The position numbers and the translations under genes were made by a program. This document shows positions 5,295 through 46,579 of a DNA stretch of 64,000 nucleotides, piece after piece (the first letter of the stretch is position 1; each line of letters begins with the position of its first letter). The stretch is from assembly GCA_025451045.1 (NCBI GenBank), contig JANWLD010000003.1:133690-197689 (forward strand), read 5' to 3'. This stretch comes from Candidatus Saccharimonadales bacterium. Lineage in GTDB: Bacteria > Patescibacteriota > Saccharimonadia > Saccharimonadales > 2-12-FULL-41-12. The notes under the pieces are model-generated. The model worked only from the letters and a program-made list of their open reading frames with translations. It had not been told where the DNA came from and searched no databases.

Positions 5295-5828
5295 CTATAT
5301 TGGGTCTTTTTTGAGTTTGAGCCTGTAGCCTATGTAGCTTGATATTAAATGCATTAAGAACCAAACAATTATAATTAAAATGTATTGCTCAAGGCTTAAA
5401 ATTATAACGATAGAACTAAAAAGTAATCCGCCAACAATATAATCCAGCTGGTCAAACGGAAACCAGCTTTTACCCGAGTCCACATTAAGTTGCCTTTTGA
5501 CAAAGCTTTTGACCAAATCGCCGAATAACGCGCCAAAGCTTAGCAATACACCAAGCCAGATTGTCAGCTCGCTATAATCTAAGCCCCCTGCCGTTCCGCC
5601 GATTTGAGTCTGAAGATAAAATACCCAACTGCCCATCAATGTTCCTGCAACGATGCCGCGGATAGTTTTGTGCGGTCCGAGCAACGGCTTGCCCCGAAAT
5701 TTGCGGCCAAAGTCCAGCGGAGCGTTTAGCTCGCGTAAAACCGGTAGCTTAGCCGTGAAAATGGGCGTCATATTGGCGATACCGGCCGGTAAGAAAAACC
5801 ACAGACTGAACAAAAGGTCAGACATCAT
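5295..5828 (-). CDS. CarS-like (DUF46) CDP-archaeol synthase family membrane cytidylyltransferase
   Basis: 177-aa multi-TM protein; LPAGIANMTP...PLDFGRKF.GKPLLGPHKTIRG matches the family signature as I recall it; size fits; ATGA overlap with the upstream gene. Confidence 0.65.
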   Translation of the reverse strand: MMSDLLFSLWFFLPAGIANMTPIFTAKLPVLRELNAPLDFGRKFRGKPLLGPHKTIRGIVAGTLMGSWVFYLQTQIGGTAGGLDYSELTIWLGVLLSFGALFGDLVKSFVKRQLNVDSGKSWFPFDQLDYIVGGLLFSSIVIILSLEQYILIIIVWFLMHLISSYIGYRLKLKKDPI

Positions 5829-24204: not shown

Positions 24205-25074
24205 TTAAATAAGCTGGGAAAGTAGGGCGCGGAGGGTGTCGTAGTTACCGCGGTCAGAGGTGGAATGGCCGGCGACGGTCCAGAATATCTCGCTATCCGG
24301 AAGCTTCTGGTGCAAGTCGTAAGCGGCTTTCGGCGGAGTGACAAAATCATAACGTCCTTGAACAATTTTGACTGGAACATTAATCTTGGAAGCGTTATCT
24401 AAGATGTAATTTTCCGGCAAAAACACGTCGTGCTTGAAATATTCGAATTCAATCTTAAGCGGCGTGTCATCGTATTTTTCGCGGTCTAGCGGATAATATC
24501 TGTCGTCCAGCCGATAAAACTGGATAAAAGCCGAGCTGTAAGCAAAGAAATCAATCTTGTCTTTTTTCTGTTTAAGCTGGTTGTATCTTTCCCACGCATC
24601 CGGGTAGAACATACGGTACTTTCCTTCGGTCAGCCATTCAATCTCTTCTTTACTGCACAGCCAAATACCGCCAATGACCATCGATTTGATTTGTGCAGAG
24701 TGCTTAATAGCGTAGCACAGCGCCAAAGTTGAACCCCACGAAGTACCGTGCACATGCCACTTGTCGATTTTGAGCTTGCCGCGGACAAGCTCGATATCTT
24801 CAACCAGCTTCGGCGTAGTATTTTCTTTAAGCGAGCCATATGGCGTGCTGTTGCCCGACCCGCGTTGGTCTAAGAATATTACACGGTGCTTTTTTGGGTT
24901 AAAAAAGCTTTTGAACTTATCCCTGCAGCCAACGCCCGGACCGCCGTGCAGGAATAATATGGGTATTCCATCCGGGCTGCCCCACTCCTGGACATATAGC
25001 TTGTGCAAGCCATCAGCGGTCTTTATATGATGCTCGGCAATAGTAAATTCGTCTTTACTCAGGACCTCGGCCAT
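24205..25074 (-). CDS. pip: Proline iminopeptidase (alpha/beta hydrolase)
   Basis: FLHGGPGVG, DQRGSGNS and nucleophile elbow GTSWGS; start moved to MAEVLSK, which removes the overlap with the upstream gene. Confidence 0.85.
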   Translation of the reverse strand: MAEVLSKDEFTIAEHHIKTADGLHKLYVQEWGSPDGIPILFLHGGPGVGCRDKFKSFFNPKKHRVIFLDQRGSGNSTPYGSLKENTTPKLVEDIELVRGKLKIDKWHVHGTSWGSTLALCYAIKHSAQIKSMVIGGIWLCSKEEIEWLTEGKYRMFYPDAWERYNQLKQKKDKIDFFAYSSAFIQFYRLDDRYYPLDREKYDDTPLKIEFEYFKHDVFLPENYILDNASKINVPVKIVQGRYDFVTPPKAAYDLHQKLPDSEIFWTVAGHSTSDRGNYDTLRALLSQLI

Positions 25075-25081
25075 ATGTTTA

Positions 25082-26260
25082 TTATAAAGCAATACGGGTC
25101 TTGGCGGCTTGCGCCAAAGTTTCCAGCATCCGCGCGGTGGTATCCAGCCCGACACATCCGTCGGTGACGGATTGGCCATAGACTAGTTTCTTGCCGGGTT
25201 CAAGTTTTTGAGCTCCTTCTACAAGATTGCTCTCTATCATTACGCCGCAGATATCAGGACTACCTTCGCTTACCTGACGGGCGACATTTTCAAGGACGGC
25301 TTCCTGATTACGGTAATCTTTGTTGCTGTTAGCATGCGAACAATCAATCATTATCGAAGTATTAAGGCCATTAGCGCGAAGTTTGTCCGTGGTCTCTTTG
25401 ACATGGCTTTTGTCATAATTCGCTCCTTTGCTGCTGCCACGCAGGACAATATGGCAATACGGGTTGCCTTTGGTCTTGATAGAGGCTGATTTACCCTTGA
25501 GATCTATACCTGGGAAAACATGCGATTCTTTGGAGGCGGCAATAGCATCAATGGCTATCTGTACACTGCCGCCGGTGCCGTTTTTGTATCCGACAGGGAA
25601 TGATACCCCGGAAACAAGTTCGCGGTGCAACTGGCTCTCAGTGGTACGGGCACCGATTGCGCCCCATGATACCAAATCGGAGACGTATTGCGGCGTACGG
25701 GTGCTTAACAGTTCGTAAGATACCGGCAAGCCAAGTTCGGTTATGTCGGCCAGAAGTTTTCGCGAAACCCTAAACCCCTTGTTGACATGGTAACTGCCGT
25801 CAAGGTCAGGGTCGTTAATAATTCCTTTCCAGCCGACCGTAGTACGTGGTTTTTCCAGGTATGTACGCATGACGATTTCTAACGTATCAGCGTATTTATC
25901 GCGCTGGCCTTTTAAGAAACGGGCGTATTCCATAGCCGCATCAGCGTCATGGATAGAACATGGGCCAACCACTACCAATAGCCTGCTATCTTTCCGTTCC
26001 GGTCCGACTATTTTTTCTATCGCCCGGCGGCTATTTATCACTGTTTCAGCTGATTTTTCGGATTGCGGGAATTCGCCGATGACTTGCTCAGGGCTGTCCA
26101 GCGGCAATATTTGTTCAATCCTACTATCTGTAAGTATCTGCTCTCTCATACTTTTTCTCTTAATAGATTGTACCTCATCCTCACGGATATCGTAGGGGCG
26201 ATCGGCAACCAATTCCGTTTTTGGTGCTTCTCGCGGCTTGTCTTCGGTTAAAGTTTCCAT
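25082..26260 (-). CDS. aroG: 3-deoxy-7-phosphoheptulonate (DAHP) synthase, class I
   Basis: VVVGPCSIHD, KPRTTVGWKG and IDCSHANS motifs; cannot distinguish the F/G/H isozyme type. Confidence 0.9.
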   Translation of the reverse strand: METLTEDKPREAPKTELVADRPYDIREDEVQSIKRKSMREQILTDSRIEQILPLDSPEQVIGEFPQSEKSAETVINSRRAIEKIVGPERKDSRLLVVVGPCSIHDADAAMEYARFLKGQRDKYADTLEIVMRTYLEKPRTTVGWKGIINDPDLDGSYHVNKGFRVSRKLLADITELGLPVSYELLSTRTPQYVSDLVSWGAIGARTTESQLHRELVSGVSFPVGYKNGTGGSVQIAIDAIAASKESHVFPGIDLKGKSASIKTKGNPYCHIVLRGSSKGANYDKSHVKETTDKLRANGLNTSIMIDCSHANSNKDYRNQEAVLENVARQVSEGSPDICGVMIESNLVEGAQKLEPGKKLVYGQSVTDGCVGLDTTARMLETLAQAAKTRIAL

Positions 26261-26273
26261 AAATTTCTCCTTA

Positions 26274-26306
26274 TAAAATAAAAATCGCCCGCTCTTCAGC
26301 GGACGA
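26274..26306 (-). terminator. Attenuator terminator upstream of DAHP synthase
   Basis: Minus strand: UCGUCCGCU-GAAG-AGCGGGCGA (9 bp, one G.U), then AUUUUUAUUUU; SD AAGGAG and ATG follow within ~25 nt. Confidence 0.7.
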
Positions 26307-26329
26307 GGTGCTTTTTCTTAGTAGTTTAT

Positions 26330-26410
26330 TTAAAACGCAAATTGAGCACTGTCCGCGCTAAGCGGCATAAAGTAAGTGCTAAACCAATACTGTTTTAAAT
26401 ATGTTTTCAC
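26330..26410 (-). CDS. Aromatic-rich leader peptide (V/M)KTYLKQYWFSTYFMPLSADSAQFAF
   Basis: 27-codon ORF from GTG; 8 of 26 residues are Tyr/Trp/Phe; sits between a promoter-like element and the terminator in front of DAHP synthase. Confidence 0.55.
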   Translation of the reverse strand: MKTYLKQYWFSTYFMPLSADSAQFAF

Positions 26411-26417
26411 GATTACT

Positions 26418-26447
26418 ACTATACTACATTTATTTTGCTAATGCAAA
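26418..26447 (-). promoter_or_regulatory. Putative promoter of the aromatic leader
   Basis: TTTGCA (26442-26447), 18-nt spacer, TATAGT (26418-26423), 7 nt, GTG. Confidence 0.4.
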
Positions 26448-26448
26448 C

Positions 26449-26700
26449 CTATCTTTTGAATTTGCGCTTGCCCGACCCGCGAAGTCTTCTCGCGGCTCTA
26501 GTGATCATATCCAGCTCAGGACCCTGTCTTGCCGGCGGCGTTTTCTTATCTTCTTTACGCCGTCCTTTTGGTTCTTCTGAGGCTTCCGAGGCGTCAGGTT
26601 CGGTCGAATCCTTGGCAACTATATCTTCGGCTTCGCCCGTGCTGCCTCTGACTTCAATATCATCATTCCCCAGCATTTCCATATCTATATTATAGCGCAC
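26449..26700 (-). CDS. Hypothetical disordered 83-aa protein (acidic N-terminal half, basic C-terminus)
   Basis: ORF co-oriented with the M20 peptidase gene and overlapping its end by 16 nt; low complexity, so uncertain. Confidence 0.35.
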   Translation of the reverse strand: MRYNIDMEMLGNDDIEVRGSTGEAEDIVAKDSTEPDASEASEEPKGRRKEDKKTPPARQGPELDMITRAARRLRGSGKRKFKR

Positions 26701-27767
26701 TGCTCGAGATATTTACGGAGTATAGTGGTTAGCTGAATAACTCCTTCGGCGTCCACCCACTCGCTGTCAGCATGCCGCCCGCCGCCGTTAGGCTGGATAA
26801 CGACACAAGGTATATTATGGGCACAAAAATACCGCGCGTCGGTTGAGCCGACAGAATGGCTCTTGGGGATTTTCCGGCCCAGCACTGTTTCGGCAGTCCG
26901 GATAAAGTCGATTATTTCCGGTTTTTCGGTATCTACGTTTATGCACGAGAAAAGTTCGATGTTTTTACTGTCCACGCCATGTTTTAGGCATATCTTCTCC
27001 ACTTGAGCCTTGAGACTTTCATATATTTCACTGGTTTTGAACCGGATGTCTAAAACAGCTTCGGCGTGGTCGGGAATCTGGTTCATGGCTTTGCCGGAGC
27101 TGATTTTCGTAAGCGACAGTGTCAATTCTTCGTCAGAGTAGTCTTCGCGGAGTTTGTGAAGTTCGTGTATCGTTCGGGTCAAGATTTCCGCGGCGTTTAT
27201 TCCTTTGTGAGGGACAGAGCCATGGGCGTTCTTGCCGGTTTTTGAAAGTTTGACGAACCAGGCGCCGTTGCCGGTCGACTCCAAGTGCCAGTCTTTGCCG
27301 GAATCCGGCAGAATACAAACATTGGCGCCGTAGCCTTGGTTGAGCAAGGCTTCAACGCCGTTGTGGCCGCCGATTTCTTCGTCAAAACTGAGCATAATAC
27401 CAAAATCGTATTTGGAGGTGTCTTTTCCAAGGTCATTAATTAGCTTCATATAGCTAGCGCAAGCGAATTTCATATCGAAAGTACCCCGGCCTTTCAGCTT
27501 ACCGTCTTCTCTTTTCATTTTAAAAAGCTTGTCACCCGCTGGTACGACATCCATATGGCATTGAAGCATTACTTTCGGTTTTTTGGTCTTTTGAGCGGTA
27601 GCAACGACATTAGGATAACCGTCGGACTCTATTAGCTTGGTATGCAGGCCGTGAGATTTGAAAAATTCAGCGCAATGCTCAGCGCAGGCTTTTGAGGCCT
27701 TTTTATCGGCTGTAACCGAAGCAAAGGCCACCAGTTCTTCCAGATAGTCAGCTTCACTCTTCATGCC
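26685..27767 (-). CDS. M20-family metallopeptidase/deacylase (ArgE/DapE-like)
   Basis: LQCHMDVVPAGD, GRGTFDMK and SFDEEIGG metal-ligand motifs; start placed at the internal MGMKSE (track ORF extends to 27833). Confidence 0.8.
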   Translation of the reverse strand, partial: GMKSEADYLEELVAFASVTADKKASKACAEHCAEFFKSHGLHTKLIESDGYPNVVATAQKTKKPKVMLQCHMDVVPAGDKLFKMKREDGKLKGRGTFDMKFACASYMKLINDLGKDTSKYDFGIMLSFDEEIGGHNGVEALLNQGYGANVCILPDSGKDWHLESTGNGAWFVKLSKTGKNAHGSVPHKGINAAEILTRTIHELHKLREDYSDEELTLSLTKISSGKAMNQIPDHAEAVLDIRFKTSEIYESLKAQVEKICLKHGVDSKNIELFSCINVDTEKPEIIDFIRTAETVLGRKIPKSHSVGSTDARYFCAHNIPCVVIQPNGGGRHADSEWVDAEGVIQLTTILRKYLEQCAII

Positions 27768-27801
27768 CATATTATAGGCTAAATCCGGGTAAATCGCTTC
27801 C

Positions 27802-28215
27802 TTAGGCCGCTTGCTGTATTTCGACCGGCTCAACTGTTTGAGCGGTTGATGCTCTGCCCAAGTCCTTCTCTACGTCAAGTTCGGACAGCCGATCATGCAG
27901 ATTGTGCGGAAGCTCATGGACAAGCTGGACATAATTAGTAATGGGCATGCGGATAATTGGTTTGCCTTCGGCTACCTTTATCCATGCCGCGGGCTTGCCG
28001 CGTTCCTGTTTTGCTTTGGCAAAAGTGTCGTTACGCTTGGTAAGTACCGTGCTATTCGGGTCGAAAGTGCCATCTTCGTATACATAGCGTTCAACGCCGT
28101 TTTGCATGGTCGTAACCCTCATCCTTGGCCCTTCGTATGATTCCGGATAACCCAGTAATTTCTTGCCGTCAGGATAAATTTTTCTTTGCGGCGGTTTGTA
28201 CATCTTTTTGTTCAT
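27802..28215 (-). CDS. Hypothetical 137-aa protein, first gene after the Leu/Ile/Val leader
   Basis: ORF with SD AGGAG; no recognisable motif. Confidence 0.55.
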   Translation of the reverse strand: MNKKMYKPPQRKIYPDGKKLLGYPESYEGPRMRVTTMQNGVERYVYEDGTFDPNSTVLTKRNDTFAKAKQERGKPAAWIKVAEGKPIIRMPITNYVQLVHELPHNLHDRLSELDVEKDLGRASTAQTVEPVEIQQAA

Positions 28216-28235
28216 TTCTCACTCCTCTCTAAATT

Positions 28236-28264
28236 AAAAACTCCCGCTTGGTTAGCGGGAGCTC
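28236..28264 (-). terminator. Attenuator terminator (Leu/Ile/Val leader)
   Basis: Minus strand: AGCUCCCGCU-AACCA-AGCGGGAGUU, then UUUAAUUU; the structural-gene SD lies ~15 nt downstream. Confidence 0.75.
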
Positions 28265-28287
28265 ATTTTCTTAGGTTAATTACAAGC

Positions 28288-28347
28288 TTACCCGCTGGTC
28301 TCCGGGGCCACTACTACTGCGATTGCGAGTATTAATGATTTGCTCAT
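28288..28347 (-). CDS. Leader peptide MSKSLILAIAVVVAPETSG
   Basis: 20-codon ORF; 7 of 19 residues are Leu/Ile/Val, plus 4 Ala; AGCGGG-UA-AGCU around the stop codon is complementary to the terminator 5' arm. Confidence 0.65.
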   Translation of the reverse strand: MSKSLILAIAVVVAPETSG

Positions 28348-28353
28348 AATTCC

Positions 28354-28382
28354 ACCTTACGCCTCTCTGTTAATGTTGTCAA
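28354..28382 (-). promoter_or_regulatory. Putative promoter of the Leu/Ile/Val leader, with its -35 overlapping the upstream stop codon
   Basis: TTGACA (28377-28382, contains the TGA stop of the 528-aa gene), 17-nt spacer, TAAGGT (28354-28359), 6 nt, ATG. Confidence 0.4.
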
Positions 28383-29965
28383 GCAGCTTTCTTAGCTTCA
28401 GCTTTTTGGACTCGTTCTTCGGCACGGTCAATTACATTGACAGCATGCATCAAAGCCTCAACTCCAGCTCTTTCTGAAACTTTTGATTTGGCGTGGGTGT
28501 CTATTTCGTATCCGTTATGTTTGACGGTCGCGAATATTCTGACCGCAGCATCTGAACCTTCTTCCAGATCATCAACGTGCCAGCCGCCAATATCAAACTC
28601 AAAACCTACGATAAACTGCATCACCTGCTTTGCGGCATCTACTACGCCGCCTTCTGATTTGACAGTCTTTTTCTGTCCGTTGATGGTGAGGGTTGCCTCG
28701 CAAATCCCCTCTGTGTCTCCGCTGAAAGAGAAAGTCTCAAGATTGAACTTGTCTTCCATCTTCTCCCCGGTCACTCCGCTAGCAAGTTTTTCGAGGTCAT
28801 TGTGGCCGAGATTTCTGTCTTCATTTGTTGAGAGGTCTTTAACAGCTTCCGTTACCCTCAATAGTTCATCGTCACCCACATTTACATTTAGTCTGGAAAG
28901 TTCGTATCGGACCCCGGCTTTGCCGCTTTGGTCATTTATCTTGAACTCAAAAGGCTTATCAAAACCGAATGTCGAAGAAGGAAAGTTCTTAAAGGTTCCC
29001 TCGTCTTTGATTACGCCGTCCTGATGCATGCCGGAACCGTGCACATAGCTTTTGCGGCCAATGAACGGTTGAGTTTCTGCAACACGTACGCCAAGTGCCC
29101 GCGGCGCTACGCTATGGGTCAGATTACGCAATTTCAACGGGTCGACATTTGTCCTAAGACCCAGTTCTGGCTGGACGGCTATATTACCGACCACCAGTTC
29201 TAAAGGAGTGTTGCCATTGCGCTCACCGACTCCGCCGATTGTTACCTCAACCTGTTCGGCACCGCCGAAACGCAAGGCATCCACGCTATTCATTACCGAT
29301 TGCCCCAAGTCATTGTGGCAATGGGCTGCGATGACTACATCTTTAAAGCCCTGGCTGTCCAGTTCTTCACGTACTGCCAATAGTCTTTCGGAGTATTCTC
29401 TTGGCAACATAGCCCCTACGGTATCAGGAAGCATCATAGTTGTTGCACCAGTGTTGGCTACGGCAAGAACCGTTTTTTTCAAAAACTCCAAGTCAGCCCT
29501 TGTTGAATCTTCAAACGAGAATTCTACGTCATGCGTATGTTCCTTCGCCTGTTTGGTTGATTTAACTGCGAGTTCAAGCAGGCTTTTTCTGCCCATGCCG
29601 AGACGTTCTTTTATGTGCAAATCACTGACCGGCGCGCAAACGTTAATCCGAGCCCTATCACCGGCCGGTTCCAACGCCCGGCCGGCTTGTTCTATATCTT
29701 CAGGCAGTGTTCGAGCAAAAGCGGCTATGATAGGACCGTTTACTTTATCTGCGATATTTCGAACGGTTGCAAAATTGCCGCGGCTGGATCCGGGAAAACC
29801 GGCTTCAATCACATCCGTACCGGCTTCCGCCAAGCTTTCGGCAATGTATAAGGCGTTTTCCTTATTGGCGCTTGCATCGGGTGATTGGACTCCGTCGCGA
29901 AGCGTGGTATCAAAAATTATCACATTGGTTGGTTCTTTAAGTTGTTCTCCGCCTTGCTCTCTCAT
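28379..29965 (-). CDS. LeuA/CimA-family 2-alkylmalate synthase, 528 aa (citramalate synthase inferred from its Ile leader)
   Basis: FDTTLRDGVQS, HCHNDLG, and a C-terminal LeuA-dimer-type regulatory domain. Confidence 0.88.
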   Translation of the reverse strand: MREQGGEQLKEPTNVIIFDTTLRDGVQSPDASANKENALYIAESLAEAGTDVIEAGFPGSSRGNFATVRNIADKVNGPIIAAFARTLPEDIEQAGRALEPAGDRARINVCAPVSDLHIKERLGMGRKSLLELAVKSTKQAKEHTHDVEFSFEDSTRADLEFLKKTVLAVANTGATTMMLPDTVGAMLPREYSERLLAVREELDSQGFKDVVIAAHCHNDLGQSVMNSVDALRFGGAEQVEVTIGGVGERNGNTPLELVVGNIAVQPELGLRTNVDPLKLRNLTHSVAPRALGVRVAETQPFIGRKSYVHGSGMHQDGVIKDEGTFKNFPSSTFGFDKPFEFKINDQSGKAGVRYELSRLNVNVGDDELLRVTEAVKDLSTNEDRNLGHNDLEKLASGVTGEKMEDKFNLETFSFSGDTEGICEATLTINGQKKTVKSEGGVVDAAKQVMQFIVGFEFDIGGWHVDDLEEGSDAAVRIFATVKHNGYEIDTHAKSKVSERAGVEALMHAVNVIDRAEERVQKAEAKKAA

Positions 29966-29982
29966 TCTTCTCCTTATAAATT

Positions 29983-30007
29983 AAAAACTCCCGCTTTCGC
30001 GGGAGCT
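29983..30007 (-). terminator. Attenuator terminator (Ile leader)
   Basis: Minus strand: AAGCUCCCGC-GAAA-GCGGGAGUUU, then UUAAUUU; SD AAGGAGA and ATG follow directly. Confidence 0.78.
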
Positions 30008-30032
30008 TAGCTTTCAAAAACAAAAAGTAAAC

Positions 30033-30086
30033 TTACCCGCGTGCCTCCGGGATAATAATTATTGTGTCAATAATCTGTTTACTCAT
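30033..30086 (-). CDS. Ile-rich leader peptide MSKQIIDTIIIIPEARG
   Basis: 18-codon ORF; 6 of 17 residues are Ile, including a run of four; CGCGGG-UA-AGUU around the stop codon is complementary to the terminator 5' arm. Confidence 0.7.
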   Translation of the reverse strand: MSKQIIDTIIIIPEARG

Positions 30087-30130: not shown

Positions 30131-31981
30131 TTATTTATAATATGAACTTTGGAACATCTTTGTCATGGATCTTTTATGTATTTCTCTTTGGTGGCGCCAT
30201 TCAGCCCTTTTTATAAGGTTAACTGCTTTGATATAGGCGTGGATGGTGGCGTTGTTCAGGCTGGTGCCTTCGCTGTATGCAGTTACGGTCACGCCTTTAT
30301 AAGCCACCTTGACTATAGCTCCTGCTTCAGAATCGGAGCCGCTATGAAGGGCAAAAGGTTTCGCATCTTCAATATCCCCGCTAAAGTCAAGTATCTTACC
30401 GATGGCGATTCTGGCGGCATCTACTTCCCCCTTGTTGCTCGTGGCTTTTTCTGTTCGTCTCTTGCCGTCTATATTTAAAGTTATTTTGGCATAGTCATCA
30501 TTTTCCTTCCCGTGGGATTTTGCGTGCAGTTCACTATCTGTCATTTTTATAGCGTCGTCCTGCCCGTGGAATAACTGTTCAAGCGCGAAGGCCTCGATTT
30601 CTAGATCGGTTATGGGCTGTTTCCTTGTTTTTGAAACGGTGTTGGAGTTGATAACTATTTGTTCTATATCAAGCTTAGCTACATCAAAGGCTAGATCGGT
30701 TAATCTTTTCACGGTTTCTTCCGAATTAATTACCAATTCTGACTTGTAGATGTCCGTACCGCCAAGATTGGCCCGACCAGCTTTACCTTGGTACTTCCCA
30801 TCTTCCAATATAGCCGCGACGGGATGTCCGAAGCCTCGGTTGTCTACAGCGGCGTAGGTCGCGGCCCCTCCTTTATTAATAGCATCCGAATGAACGCCCG
30901 AGCGGTGAACTATAGTATGGAAACCGGTGACGGGGGTATCGGGGTCAAGCTCCAATCCGGCGGCGTCTAATAGGCCTTCTGCTACGGCTTTCAACTTGGT
31001 TGTATCCACCGTAATTACTACGGGCGCGGCAAACTCATCCCGATCGGTCAGAACGTTGCGTACATAAGGCGCTAAATACATATTGCCGTTGCGTTCGCCT
31101 TTGCCGGGAGCGCTGACTGACTCCACTTGAAAGTCCGGTATAGCTGAACTTCTTGCTAACGCGGCGTTTATTACCGCATGCATTGAAGATATGGTGTTTT
31201 GAACGGCTCTCTGGCCATCATCGTGGTTGTGGCTCGATATCGTAATCTCTTCCACCCTGCCTTCGTCAATCATCCAGTTTGTCGCGGCGTCGAATATTTT
31301 GGCCATGCGGATAGGACTGGCAGCTCCTAGAGTGTCGGGCAGGTTAATTACATTTATATCTTCCTGCAGTGCGGTTCTGACTGCTCTTTCTAAGAAGACC
31401 ATATCAGTTGTAGAAGCTGCTTCGCAGGAAAACTCTACCGTACCATCAGGTCCTATTGCATCTCGGGCTCTGCGTATACTGTCCACGCCCATTTCAAGTA
31501 CTTCTTCCCTGGTCATGGCAGGGTGTTTTGCGCGCATGTGTTCTTCGGCGGTGGCGATAAATACATGTATTCCGGGTCTGTCAGCTTCTTCTACGGCTCT
31601 GGCTGCTTGCTCAATTCCTGCCGGATTAGCCAGAGTAAGTCCGGTAATGACAGGCGTCCAGATTTTTGGCGGCAAGTCTACCCAGTTACCATTTTCAATA
31701 GACTTCGGTAATATCTGGTACTGGGTTTGCCCGACTGTTCTGGCTACTTCAGCTATTTCTTCTTCATCGCCCATACTGGCTGGAAAGCCAGCTTCGATTA
31801 CGTCTACTCCCTGGCTTACTATCAACTCCGCCAGCTCGACTTTTGAGCCTTCAGGGAATTGATTCTCCTGAGGCAAAGACTGCGCCCCGTCGCGTAGCGT
31901 AGTGTCGAATATCTCTATTTTCATTGCCGCCGGATCAAATTCCGGTTTAGAAGGCAGTGTTTCTACTTGGCTTTGTATCAT
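30131..31981 (-). CDS. LeuA-family 2-isopropylmalate synthase-like enzyme, 616 aa
   Basis: FDTTLRDGAQS, SSHNHDDG (HxH) and a C-terminal LeuA-dimer-type domain; preceded by a Leu-rich leader. Confidence 0.85.
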   Translation of the reverse strand: MIQSQVETLPSKPEFDPAAMKIEIFDTTLRDGAQSLPQENQFPEGSKVELAELIVSQGVDVIEAGFPASMGDEEEIAEVARTVGQTQYQILPKSIENGNWVDLPPKIWTPVITGLTLANPAGIEQAARAVEEADRPGIHVFIATAEEHMRAKHPAMTREEVLEMGVDSIRRARDAIGPDGTVEFSCEAASTTDMVFLERAVRTALQEDINVINLPDTLGAASPIRMAKIFDAATNWMIDEGRVEEITISSHNHDDGQRAVQNTISSMHAVINAALARSSAIPDFQVESVSAPGKGERNGNMYLAPYVRNVLTDRDEFAAPVVITVDTTKLKAVAEGLLDAAGLELDPDTPVTGFHTIVHRSGVHSDAINKGGAATYAAVDNRGFGHPVAAILEDGKYQGKAGRANLGGTDIYKSELVINSEETVKRLTDLAFDVAKLDIEQIVINSNTVSKTRKQPITDLEIEAFALEQLFHGQDDAIKMTDSELHAKSHGKENDDYAKITLNIDGKRRTEKATSNKGEVDAARIAIGKILDFSGDIEDAKPFALHSGSDSEAGAIVKVAYKGVTVTAYSEGTSLNNATIHAYIKAVNLIKRAEWRHQREIHKRSMTKMFQSSYYK

Positions 31982-31993
31982 TTTTTCTCCATT

Positions 31994-32024
31994 AAATTAA
32001 AAATAGGCTTCTTGGTTGAAGCCT
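31994..32024 (-). terminator. Attenuator terminator (Leu leader)
   Basis: Minus strand: AGGCUUC-AACCAA-GAAGCCU, then AUUUUUAAUUU; SD GGAGA lies ~15 nt downstream. Confidence 0.7.
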
Positions 32025-32063
32025 GATGCTTTGGGCTGTACTGTGGCTCCGATACCCTCGGAA

Positions 32064-32141
32064 CTAGGCTTCAACCATGCTGAAGCACAGCCCTTTAAGG
32101 CTGAGTAGGAGGTCCAAGTGCTTCGCTATGTATGAAACCAT
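32064..32141 (-). CDS. Leu-rich leader peptide MVSYIAKHLDLLLSLKGLCFSMVEA
   Basis: 26-codon ORF; 6 Leu, clustered as LDLLLSLKGL; its last codons GGUUGAAGCCU(AG) are an 11-nt perfect complement of the terminator 5' arm plus loop. Confidence 0.72.
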   Translation of the reverse strand: MVSYIAKHLDLLLSLKGLCFSMVEA

Positions 32142-44439: not shown

Positions 44440-45468
44440 ATGACTGACAAGACTTCCGACTACAAAATTGCGACTCTTGGGAGCCATTCCGCGCTTCAGA
44501 TACTAAAAGGCGCGCGCGACGAAGGCTTTAAAACAATGATAATCGCCCTCAAGGGACGGACTCAGCCGTATGAGTCTTTCAAAGTTGCCGATGAGATAAT
44601 TGAGCTGGAATCATTCAAGGACCTCCCCGGTTTGGAACAGCGGCTGATTGATGAGAATGTGATTTTAGTACCGCACGGCTCATTTTTTAGCGCCTATACC
44701 GATTTGGAGGCATTAAACCAATCCGACGCGCTTTACTTCGGTAATAAAAAGATTTTGCCATGGGAACAAAGCCGGACTAAACAGCGTGAATGGCTGAAAA
44801 AAGCCGGACTGACCCTGCCGAAGATTTATGATAAGCCCGAAGATATCGACGGCCCTTGCATCATCAAGTTTTATGGTGCTGGCGGCGGCAAAGGATACTT
44901 TTTGGCCAAGACCGCCGAAGAGTTTTATGAAAAAATCAAACCTCATAAAGACAAGAGATACATAATCCAGCAATACATCGTCGGAGCGCCGCTGTATGTA
45001 CATTACTTCTACTCGCCGCTAACAGGCGAGCTCGAAGTGATGAGCATGGACAAGCGTTACGAGACCAACGTCGATTCCATCGGGCGTATAAGCGCCAAAG
45101 ACCAACTGGATTTGAATATCGAAAGCTCTTACAACATCATGGGCAACCTGCCGGTGGTAGTACGCGAATCGATGTTGCCGCAGATATTTTCTATGGGTGA
45201 AGAGGTCGTTAAGGTTTCCAAGAAACTGGAGCCGGGCGGACTCACCGGACCGTTTTGCCTGGAAACAATAGTCACGCCGGAACTGGAATTTTATGTATTT
45301 GAAATTTCCGCCCGCATCGTCGCGGGGACTAATCCGTACATCAACGGCTCGCCCTATACTGATCTTCGTTACAAAGAACCAATGAGTACCGGTCGCCGCG
45401 TAGCACGAGAGATAAAGCTAGCATTAGAAAGTGATGAAATAGAAAAGGTTTTGATAAATGGCAATTGA
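44440..45468 (+). CDS. purP: Archaeal-type 5-formaminoimidazole-4-carboxamide ribonucleotide (FAICAR) synthetase, PurP family
   Basis: IATLGSHSALQILKGARDEGFKT N-terminal signature, then an ATP-grasp region. Confidence 0.78.
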   Translation: MTDKTSDYKIATLGSHSALQILKGARDEGFKTMIIALKGRTQPYESFKVADEIIELESFKDLPGLEQRLIDENVILVPHGSFFSAYTDLEALNQSDALYFGNKKILPWEQSRTKQREWLKKAGLTLPKIYDKPEDIDGPCIIKFYGAGGGKGYFLAKTAEEFYEKIKPHKDKRYIIQQYIVGAPLYVHYFYSPLTGELEVMSMDKRYETNVDSIGRISAKDQLDLNIESSYNIMGNLPVVVRESMLPQIFSMGEEVVKVSKKLEPGGLTGPFCLETIVTPELEFYVFEISARIVAGTNPYINGSPYTDLRYKEPMSTGRRVAREIKLALESDEIEKVLINGN

Positions 45469-46579
45469 CAGCAGCAAACTACTAGACGGTTATGACTTGA
45501 ATAACATTCGCATTGCTACGCTCGGCGGACATAGCGCGCTGGACGTATGCCGCGGCGCGAAGAGCGAAGGGTTCGAAACGGTCGTTGTAGCCCAAAAAGA
45601 CCGCGCCAAGACTTTTACCGATTATTACAAAACCCGCGGTAACAAAGGCTGTGTCGACCATGTCATCTTGGTAGATGATTTCGCGGACGTAGCCAAGCCG
45701 GAAATCCAGAAACAACTACGCGAATTAAACGCGGTATTCGTACATAGCCGTTACTTTTGGGTTTACTGCGATATCAACCAGATTGAAAATGATTTTAACG
45801 TGCCGATTATCGGCAACCGGGTGCTGGTGCGCAAAGAAGAGCGCGACGAAGAAAAAAACCAGTACTTCCTACTCAAAGAAGCCGGTATAAATATCCCGAA
45901 ACAGTTTGCTGATCCAAAAGACATTGACCGTCAGGTTATCGTCAAGGCTGCCGAAGCGAACCGTAAGTATGAGCGGGCCTTTTTCTTGGTGCATAGCTAT
46001 GAAGACTATCTGGCCGAGTCCAAGAAACGTTTGGACAGCGGCGCTATAGATAAGCAGTCTTTAGACAATGCGATTATCGAAGAATTTGTTCTTGGTCCGC
46101 AATTGAACTTGAATTTCTTTTATTCGCCAGTTACGGATGAGCTGGAGCTACTGGGAACTGACACTCGCCGCCAGACTAATATAGATGGTCTCTTGCGCCT
46201 GACCGCAACTGAGCAGACTGAAGTATTGAAGCACGTCCGGCCGCAATATATCGAGAACGGACATATAGCCGTCACTATAAAAGAATCTTTGCTGGAAAAG
46301 GCATATGAAGCCGGCGAGAAGTTTGTTGAGTCGGTTGCCAAGCATTATCCGCCCGGTATGATTGGCCCGTTTGCCCTCCAAGGCGCGATTACCCCCGGCC
46401 CGCCAAAAGAAAAATTGTTTGTTTTTGACGTGAGCATGCGCATTCCCGGCAGTCCCGGTACAATGTTTACGCCCTACTCCGGCTATATGTACGGTGAAAA
46501 TATGAGCGTTGGCAAGCGCCTGGCCATGGAAGTCAAACAAGCCATAGCCGAAAATAAATTAGATCTATTAATTACTTAA
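45458..46579 (+). CDS. PurP-family paralog (second ATP-grasp formate-dependent ligase-like gene)
   Basis: IATLGGHSALDVCRGAKSEGFET; overlaps the first purP by 11 nt. Confidence 0.72.
   Translation: MAIDSSKLLDGYDLNNIRIATLGGHSALDVCRGAKSEGFETVVVAQKDRAKTFTDYYKTRGNKGCVDHVILVDDFADVAKPEIQKQLRELNAVFVHSRYFWVYCDINQIENDFNVPIIGNRVLVRKEERDEEKNQYFLLKEAGINIPKQFADPKDIDRQVIVKAAEANRKYERAFFLVHSYEDYLAESKKRLDSGAIDKQSLDNAIIEEFVLGPQLNLNFFYSPVTDELELLGTDTRRQTNIDGLLRLTATEQTEVLKHVRPQYIENGHIAVTIKESLLEKAYEAGEKFVESVAKHYPPGMIGPFALQGAITPGPPKEKLFVFDVSMRIPGSPGTMFTPYSGYMYGENMSVGKRLAMEVKQAIAENKLDLLIT

Follow-up and report, generated by a model that had tools for sequence, protein, structure and literature searches.

Known leader-peptide attenuators and the aroG element

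In Corynebacterium glutamicum, aroF is controlled by aroR, a Phe-Tyr-Phe leader (Mentz et al. 2013, PMC4046766; Neshat et al. 2014 as summarised in PMC11802643), and according to the summary in PMC11802643 an effect is seen with Phe limitation only. The ilvB leader peptide of the same bacterium is reported, in the account given in PMC4046766, to be synthesised without a ribosome-binding site (Morbach 2000, cited there). In Acholeplasma a predicted uORF with Phe codons, uORFC-13-1, is placed before aroF with its own −35 and −10 elements and an adjoining intrinsic terminator (Brewer et al. 2021, PMC8632094). The classical plan is that of the E. coli trpL and pheL leaders, in which the regulatory codons are located in segment 1 and the RNA can form a 1:2 anti-antiterminator, a 2:3 antiterminator and a 3:4 terminator. 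For Saccharibacteria, Patescibacteria or the candidate phyla radiation, a literature search for leader peptides or attenuators returned no relevant report.

Here we describe an element located on the minus strand of a 64,000-nucleotide stretch of DNA from a Candidatus Saccharimonadales bacterium (the window, meaning the whole stretch that was analysed), directly in front of a gene for DAHP synthase (aroG). The element is real and conserved. From the comparison of 18 loci it is very probably a ribosome-mediated (leader-peptide) transcription attenuator of the trpL/pheL kind, which would control a DAHP synthase-peptidase operon and sense aromatic tRNA. Control of DAHP synthase by the supply of charged aromatic tRNA had been proposed in an earlier sequence-only reading of the window, and the comparison supports it.

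The closest precedent is aroR-aroF of C. glutamicum. Both systems have a mixed-aromatic leader and an attenuator directly before the DAHP synthase gene, both would use ribosome-stalling attenuation (a prediction in our case), and corynebacterial leader peptides are translatable without a ribosome-binding site. However, aroR belongs to the Actinobacteria and is experimentally supported, whereas the window element belongs to the candidate phyla radiation and is predicted; moreover, to the extent that aroR can be compared by its published Phe-Tyr-Phe motif, it contains no Trp codon, while Trp is the sole invariant residue here. The resemblance to uORFC-13-1 consists in a predicted uORF with Phe codons and its own −35 and −10 elements, adjoined by a terminator; uORFC-13-1 occurs exclusively before a DAHP synthase gene. 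That element has been reported in Acholeplasma and environmental sequences only, and it has a ribosome-binding site, unlike the window leader; by its description, its U-run codes for at least one Phe and there is no Trp-Phe...Tyr-Phe block. With the E. coli leaders the element shares the three alternative pairings and the position of the regulatory codons. It differs from them in four respects: three amino acids are represented in the leader instead of one; the leader is apparently leaderless, whereas the E. coli leaders are preceded by a Shine-Dalgarno (SD) sequence; segment 2 is located inside the ORF and not past its stop codon; and the target is the entry enzyme of the common pathway, not an enzyme of a terminal branch.

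The mixing of Tyr, Trp and Phe in one leader had been considered unusual. This holds against E. coli pheL and trpL only, since aroR, the Acholeplasma element and several proteobacterial loci are comparable. Mini-ORFs of mixed F/Y/W composition with terminators were found before aroG-type genes in several more distant loci, namely those of Desulfobacterales (L024) and Halopseudomonas (L025) and further metagenome contigs, with peptides such as ..NFYFYFYWRG.., ..FFYFWYFYYG.. and ..FYFGYWFSHRRA. Their recurrence indicates that a three-residue leader is a natural solution for a common-pathway enzyme and no oddity. Rfam searches at the gathering threshold, covering the window and the 17 homologous loci, returned only tRNAs and no leader family. 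Membership in the Trp_leader family (RF00513) was rejected, as the score in a 601-nt search was 20.7 bits against a gathering threshold of 41 (E = 0.12), and this weak score stems mainly from hairpin stems, above all that of the terminator.

Organisation of the leader region and its probable operon

The elements of the locus are the following.

26447..26418, minus strand: promoter-like P1, sigma-70-like by consensus scan, with TTTGCA (26447..26442), an 18-nt spacer and TATAGT (26423..26418)
26410..26330, minus strand: GTG-initiated leader ORF (GTG + 25 codons + TAA), from ORF translation, with an equivalent ORF in 17 other loci
26369..26389, minus strand: regulatory codon block Tyr8-Trp9-Phe10-Ser11-Thr12-Tyr13-Phe14, TAT TGG TTT AGC ACT TAC TTT, with TGG TT(T/C) kept in 18 loci
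26306..26285 (hairpin) and 26284..26275 (U-run), minus strand: intrinsic terminator, 9-bp stem UCGUCCGCU-GAAG-AGCGGGCGA and U-run UUUUUAUUUU, from the sequence and a terminator scan
26272..26258, minus strand: SD sequence AAGGAG (26272..26267) and DAHP synthase ATG (26260..26258), from the sequence
25082..26260, minus strand: class-I DAHP synthase (aroG), 392 aa, PF00793, E = 7.6e-87
24205..25074, minus strand: alpha/beta hydrolase, S33 prolyl aminopeptidase-like, probable second gene of the operon, its ATG 5 nt past the aroG stop codon

The succession of promoter, SD-less ORF, terminator, SD and aroG fits an attenuator, and the whole is contained within 190 nt. The 26-codon GTG-initiated ORF recognised in the earlier reading is present at 26330-26410, and its translation is (fM)KTYLKQYWFSTYFMPLSADSAQFAF, with the GTG-encoded first residue written (V/M). 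Hairpin and U-run of the terminator are present as well, the only deviation being one extra A before the U-run in the earlier transcription, which is trivial. The identification of the downstream gene as DAHP synthase agrees with its PF00793 match. The enzyme has a 37-residue N-terminal extension ahead of the canonical Met38.

Aromatic codons occupy four of the six positions of the W-F-S-T-Y-F block, or five of seven with Tyr8 included. The aromatic density of the leader ORF is matched by 18 of the 741 small ORFs in the window, which makes it weak evidence at a single locus. The region shows no enrichment of terminator-like sites (9 against an expected 7.1) or of promoter-like sites. The significance of the element comes, hence, from its conservation in 17 other loci and not from the statistics of the window locus.

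The closest DAHP synthases, with 57-78% identity, come from Candidatus Saccharimonadales / Saccharibacteria MAGs and metagenome contigs. The relatives have in common the gene order M20 peptidase, small ORF, DAHP synthase and peptidase-like gene, and in every gene-called locus retrieved the gene after aroG is peptidase-like (S33, but S51 in L060 and L062). These closest relatives, together with the synteny shared with Saccharimonadales MAGs, point to a Saccharimonadales-like bacterium. A Pfam search at E ≤ 1 with the neighbouring 137-aa and 83-aa proteins gave no match. Other genes of the window resemble CarS and PurP.

Conservation of the leader peptide

The comparison comprised 17 further loci, all of Saccharimonadales type, obtained from genomes (L001, L003-L007), from metagenomes (L030, L031, L045) and by exact-protein look-up (L054, L057-L063). 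Each of them contains, in this order, an ORF of 21-31 codons, a terminator, an SD sequence and the aroG start, and the DAHP synthases of the loci with a leader are 56-77% identical to that of the window. The earlier reading had taken conserved aromatic codons in homologues as one of the points on which its case depended, and they are found throughout: the Trp codon is at index 7-9 in 18 of 18 loci, Phe comes directly after TGG in all of them except L045, which has an in-frame CCG (Pro) insertion, and a Tyr/Phe-Phe pair follows 2-3 codons past the Trp-Phe pair. The consensus of the 18 leaders is Q-x-W-F-x-x-[Y/F]-F, and each locus has 3-6 aromatic codons in a block of 5-7 codons. From the longer pattern YxxxYWFxxYF plus a C-terminal FAF that had been put forward, the Trp-Phe...Tyr-Phe block is the conserved part; Tyr4 and the FAF are not conserved, and both were rejected as parts of the sensor.

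The changes that did occur are those expected of a coding sequence. Substitutions inside the block are synonymous or aromatic-to-aromatic (Phe is encoded 40 times by TTT and 6 times by TTC, Tyr 11 times by TAC and 7 times by TAT, over the 18 loci), and length differences inside it amount to whole codons only (L001, L005, L045). The Gln two codons before Trp is kept through CAG/CAA changes. Frame 0 is open in 18 of 18 loci, frame +1 in none and frame +2 in one. At the position equivalent to the GTG there is an ATG in 13 loci and a GTG in 5, in favour of the GTG as the start. The internal ATG (Met15), which would have weakened the case, was rejected as a start codon, as only 5 of the 18 loci have it there. 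Past the aromatic block conservation of the peptide ceases and Pro, Arg and Ala abound, a composition due in most loci to a GC-rich mini-hairpin at the same place in the RNA. A pattern of conservation confined to the aromatic block typically marks a leader peptide and not a small protein with a function of its own. The mini-ORF bears, therefore, the signature expected of a translated leader peptide whose aromatic codons would be its only selected property. The leader is absent from three relatives (L032, L055 and L056), which makes it dispensable; the aroG of L055 and L056 is 76-78% identical to that of the window.

Alternative pairings of the leader RNA

The segments of the leader RNA, in addition to the terminator, are the following.

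26375..26401, minus strand: segment 1, 5′ arm of a long hairpin inside the ORF (anti-antiterminator), from MFE folds
26353..26365, minus strand: small GC hairpin CCGC-UUAGC-GCGG directly past the aromatic block, from folds, its 3′ half belonging to segment 2
26345..26356, minus strand: segment 2, GCGGAC-A-GUGCU, which pairs with segment 1 or with segment 3 (antiterminator)
26298..26312, minus strand: segment 3, AGCAC-CUC-GUCCGCU, 5′ flank and 5′ arm of the terminator, which pairs with segment 2 or with segment 4

Folding of the leader RNA is more favourable than that of its shuffled versions (z = −2.95). The terminator hairpin of the window has −15 to −16 kcal/mol, and a terminator with a U-run is present in 18 of 18 loci, at −8 to −16 kcal/mol. 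The pairing that had been proposed for the window, GCGGAC (26356..26351) with GUCCGC (26304..26299) and GUGCU (26349..26345) with AGCAC (26312..26308), is precisely the duplex that RNAduplex returns as optimal between the 3′ half of the ORF and the 5′ side of the terminator, at −18.7 kcal/mol (z = −3.1 against shuffles). It engages six of the nine bases of the terminator 5′ arm. An antiterminator is found in all 18 loci, with energies of −12.6 to −24.3 kcal/mol and 6-10 bases of the terminator 5′ arm engaged, and segment 2 begins 3-12 nt past the last aromatic codon.

The sequences of the helix vary by lineage while their complementarity is kept, as in GCGGAC/GUCCGC, GCGAGCGGUU/AAUCGUUCGC, CGGGGU/ACCCCG, GAGCGGG/CCCGCUU and GGCGAUG/CAUCGCC. 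The pairing between 26299-26304 and 26351-26356, for which a covariation analysis had been suggested, is thus represented by different sequence with preserved complementarity in every locus. Native antiterminator pairs have a mean energy of −19.6 kcal/mol against −14.2 kcal/mol for cross-locus pairs, none of 200,000 permutations being as good, and the advantage persists after removal of close relatives or near-duplicates. In the 10 loci tested, native antiterminator duplexes gave z = −3 to −5 against shuffles.

Segment 1, which contains the Trp-Phe codons, also contains AGCACU, and this motif pairs with AGUGCU. In folds of the ORF alone over the 18 loci, 77% of the segment-2 antiterminator bases are paired, and 70% have a partner that the stalled ribosome would cover. 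The 1:2 pairing co-varies too, since native duplex energies beat the cross-locus ones (10 loci, permutation p < 1e-4).

RNAalifold, applied to 10 leaders aligned with MAFFT, yielded no base pairs; past the aromatic block this alignment loses its register. Duplex energies that need no alignment were used in its place, together with a permutation of partners across loci; hence, the covariation evidence is energy-based and alignment-free and differs from a standard R-scape result. Folding at equilibrium with the ribosome footprints masked, carried out with the full leader and with RNA truncated before the terminator 3′ arm, gave no clean on/off contrast: the terminator is still favoured in many loci with the stalled ribosome, and in the truncated RNA the 5′ arm is paired with the ribosome at the stop codon as well. 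The model rests, for this reason, on the kinetics of folding, as it does for E. coli trpL, and the order in which the segments fold is presumed. With this reading of the duplex energies, the predicted four-segment logic of classical attenuation is present and co-evolving.

Putative promoter and initiation of the leader

The −10 hexamer of P1 ends 7 nt before the GTG, so that the transcript should start at or beside the start codon. A −10-like hexamer, in many cases with TG ahead of it, precedes the leader start codon by 5-9 nt in most of the 18 loci. An SD-like motif was found upstream of the leader ORF in none of the 18 loci and before the aroG start, past the terminator, in all of them. From this arrangement we infer that the ribosome reads the leaders from mRNAs that are leaderless or nearly so. 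Initiation at a leaderless GUG works efficiently in Actinobacteria and poorly in E. coli, and the GUG as a leaderless start (5 of 18 loci) is the weakest link of the initiation model.

Proposed mechanism

We propose that transcription starts about 7 nt past TATAGT, at or beside the GTG, and that the 26-codon leader, with the GTG as its putative start, is read from a leaderless or nearly leaderless mRNA. With the aromatic tRNAs well charged, the ribosome would pass Tyr-Trp-Phe-x-x-Tyr-Phe and reach the stop codon, and segment 2 would be either covered by it or taken back by segment 1. With its 5′ arm then free, the terminator hairpin would form and RNA polymerase would halt at the U-run, which is 15 nt short of the aroG start. 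Poor charging of Trp, Phe or Tyr tRNA, the presumed signals, would cause the ribosome to stall in the aromatic block, covering segment 1. Segment 2 would in this case pair with AGCAC..GUCCGC, the terminator 5′ arm would be sequestered and the polymerase would read into aroG and the peptidase gene. Without translation the terminator would be left to form, as under unimpeded translation. Given the short distance between the last aromatic codon and segment 2, a ribosome on the last Phe would partly cover the latter, so that the upstream Trp/Phe codons would be better placed.

Predicted sister attenuators in the window

A mechanical scan for sites with a mini-ORF, then a terminator, then an SD sequence and a gene start found exactly four in the window, all of them on the minus strand. 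Three are sister attenuators with Leu-rich, Ile-rich and Val-rich peptides, placed before LeuA-like genes and a peptidase operon, and together the Leu, Ile, Val-type and aromatic attenuators are located in one 6-kb stretch. The sister promoters consist of a perfect TTGACA, 17 nt, a −10 box and 6-9 nt up to the ATG, and the leaders of all four attenuators appear to be translated from leaderless mRNAs. The Ile-rich leader marks its LeuA-like gene as a probable citramalate synthase, and the Val-rich leader would mark a protein of unknown function as related to branched-chain amino acids.

Alternative explanations

The mini-ORF might be an independent small gene or small RNA, with transcripts from P1 always ending at the terminator and the DAHP synthase produced in its short Met38 form from an internal promoter (TACAAT, 26172..26167). 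In favour of this, 17-18 of 18 loci have the motif TA(C/T)AATC(A/T)AT in the N-terminal extension. The motif looks like a −10 box, is located 17-45 nt before the internal ATG and is kept in two different reading frames among the loci, which points to a DNA- or RNA-level signal. Moreover, the DAHP synthase of the relatives without leader begins at the equivalent of Met38. A second promoter could, however, coexist with attenuation, and an independent small gene leaves without explanation the strong SD and start codon past the terminator in 18 of 18 loci. In the gene-called loci aroG is called long, in frame through the extension, which is sensible only with read-through of the terminator. In addition, a co-varying antiterminator would be purposeless beside a constitutive terminator, and the peptide is conserved in its aromatic codons only. 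We consider a separate gene or small RNA decidedly unlikely.

The lack of an SD before the leader ORF and the location of the conserved bases in a hairpin arm would agree with the UGGUUU...UACUUU block acting as an RNA motif, that is, as part of a translation-independent riboswitch, a T-box-like tRNA sensor or a TRAP-/PyrR-like protein-binding attenuator. This is very unlikely, because the block accepts whole-codon insertions and synonymous or aromatic-to-aromatic changes in a single open frame. Neither the T-box (RF00230) nor any other riboswitch was among the Rfam families at gathering in the window and the 17 homologous loci, and none was found in a permissive scan of the region; the leader, of about 100 nt, is too short for a T-box, and the GAG/UAG repeat arrays are absent. 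The sister elements bear on the same question, since their Leu, Ile or Val runs match their genes, and such a match is explained by a codon-reading mechanism only. A reading of codons could still be replaced by a TnaC-like nascent arrest peptide that senses a free aromatic amino acid in the exit tunnel and not tRNA charging. The invariant Trp at a fixed distance from the N-terminus fits such a peptide, as does the conserved Gln two codons before it, which a pure hungry-codon sensor does not require. But stalling would here lead to antitermination and more DAHP synthase, and an abundant amino acid would induce the gene when it is least needed. The peptide past the block is unconserved, and TnaC works via Rho and a stop-codon stall instead of an intrinsic terminator, which leaves an arrest peptide extremely unlikely. 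Ribosome-mediated attenuation by the reading of aromatic codons is, hence, the explanation we adopt.

Implications for Saccharimonadales

The mechanism proposed is the classical, textbook one of the trpL type, apparently undescribed in the Saccharimonadales lineage. Corynebacterium is already known to have an aromatic leader before DAHP synthase, and Acholeplasma is predicted to have one; the lineage, the apparently leaderless design and the clustering of four attenuators that would also control peptidases are what is worth recording. To our knowledge, almost no regulation has been described in Saccharimonadales, of which very few members are cultivated, and the element provides them with a high-confidence, sequence-defined regulatory element. 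The leader family is currently missed by RNA and uORF annotation resources and is a candidate addition to them. Leader peptides could, furthermore, be used for inferring the function of the genes downstream.

Saccharimonadales are usually described as devoid of amino acid biosynthesis. Some of them retain the entry step of aromatic synthesis and, as predicted here, would regulate it by tRNA charging. The placement of promoters and start codons suggests, in addition, that leaderless translation operates in this Saccharimonadales-like group. Whether leaderless leader-peptide attenuation constitutes a general amino-acid-sensing strategy of soil and groundwater Saccharimonadales is a more tentative matter, which we regard as a real possibility while stopping somewhat short of favouring it. 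If so, such switches would govern entry enzymes (LeuA-like, citramalate-synthase-like and DAHP synthase) together with M20 and S33/S51 peptidase genes and a conserved unknown protein, and, as far as the literature was searched, amino acid metabolism in the candidate phyla radiation would thereby gain its first described cis-regulatory system. Starvation for a given amino acid would then turn on its synthesis and the scavenging of peptides together.

The aroG leader and N-terminal extension

Three close relatives among the comparison loci with aroG-type genes (L032, L055 and L056) carry neither the leader and terminator nor the N-terminal extension of aroG, and in all three the preceding gene directly abuts aroG; the aroG of L055 and L056 is 76-78% identical to that of the window. 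The leader/terminator and the extension were therefore gained or lost together.

Within the extension, the DNA motif TA(C/T)AATC(A/T)AT (window 26172..26167, minus strand) is kept in 17-18 of the 18 leader-bearing loci and is read in two different frames among them, giving V/L-Q-S-I in one and T-I-I or S-T-I in the other. It lies 17-45 nt upstream of the internal Met38, which matches the canonical AroG start, and may be either an operator or an additional promoter that acts independently of the attenuator.

In the leader peptide itself, a Gln is located two codons 5' of the invariant Trp (CAG, Gln7, window 26392..26390), with an equivalent codon in 15 of the 18 loci, and the residue is retained although its codon alternates between CAG and CAA. 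Its conservation is not accounted for by hungry-codon sensing and could derive from the 1:2 pairing (the anti-antiterminator helix within the leader ORF) or from a nascent-peptide effect.

Aromatic leaders elsewhere

Upstream of other aroG-type DAHP synthases, unrelated mixed F/Y/W mini-ORFs are followed by intrinsic terminators, and aromatic leaders ahead of DAHP synthase appear to be widespread and of independent origins.

Mixed F/Y/W mini-ORFs (comparison locus:positions)
L024:2585-2671, Desulfobacterales
L025:2552-2680, Halopseudomonas
L036:337-450; L040/L041:1123-1200; L042:1356-1433; L044:448-519; L034:1306-1401, metagenome contigs

Other leaders and genes of the window

Three further leaders were found in the window, all on the minus strand.

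32141..31985, minus, Leu-type leader-peptide attenuator 5' of the LeuA-like gene 30131..31981: promoter TTGACA-17-TATCGT, 9 nt to the ATG; peptide MVSYIAKHLDLLLSLKGLCFSMVEA; terminator AGGCUUC-AACCAA-GAAGCCU plus UUUUUAAUUUA, with GGAG and ATG next
30086..29968, minus, Ile-type leader (peptide MSKQIIDTIIIIPEARG) and terminator ahead of a second LeuA/HMGL-like gene, 28379..29965
28347..28222, minus, Val/branched-chain-type leader (peptide MSKSLILAIAVVVAPETSG) and terminator ahead of a gene for a 137-aa protein

An antiterminator alternative of the Leu-type attenuator is predicted in the MFE fold. The Ile-type leader and terminator suggest that the gene behind them encodes a citramalate synthase of the Ile pathway, not a second isopropylmalate synthase. 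The Val-type leader belongs to a paralogous 'MSK...(V/I)n...PE.SG' family present also in other Saccharimonadales loci (L001:607; L004:615; L006:90 and 2136; L059:125). The 137-aa protein has no Pfam match and shares with its L059 counterpart only the short motif RY(V/M)Y(E/K)DGT(F/I)DP..STV; an M20 peptidase gene comes next in the window.

Two tandem PurP-like genes (DUF1246/DUF1297; 44440..46579) and a gene of the CarS-like CDP-archaeol synthase family (5295..5828) are archaeal-type features within this bacterial window.

Peptidase genes around aroG

In the window and in loci L054-L063, a peptidase-like gene is always located 3' of aroG, encoding an S33 alpha/beta hydrolase, or Peptidase_S51 instead in L060 and L062, and an M20 peptidase is usually found 5' of aroG; the peptidase-type neighbours in the window are 24205..25074 and 26685..27833. 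This arrangement suggests common regulation of peptide scavenging and the synthesis of amino acids.
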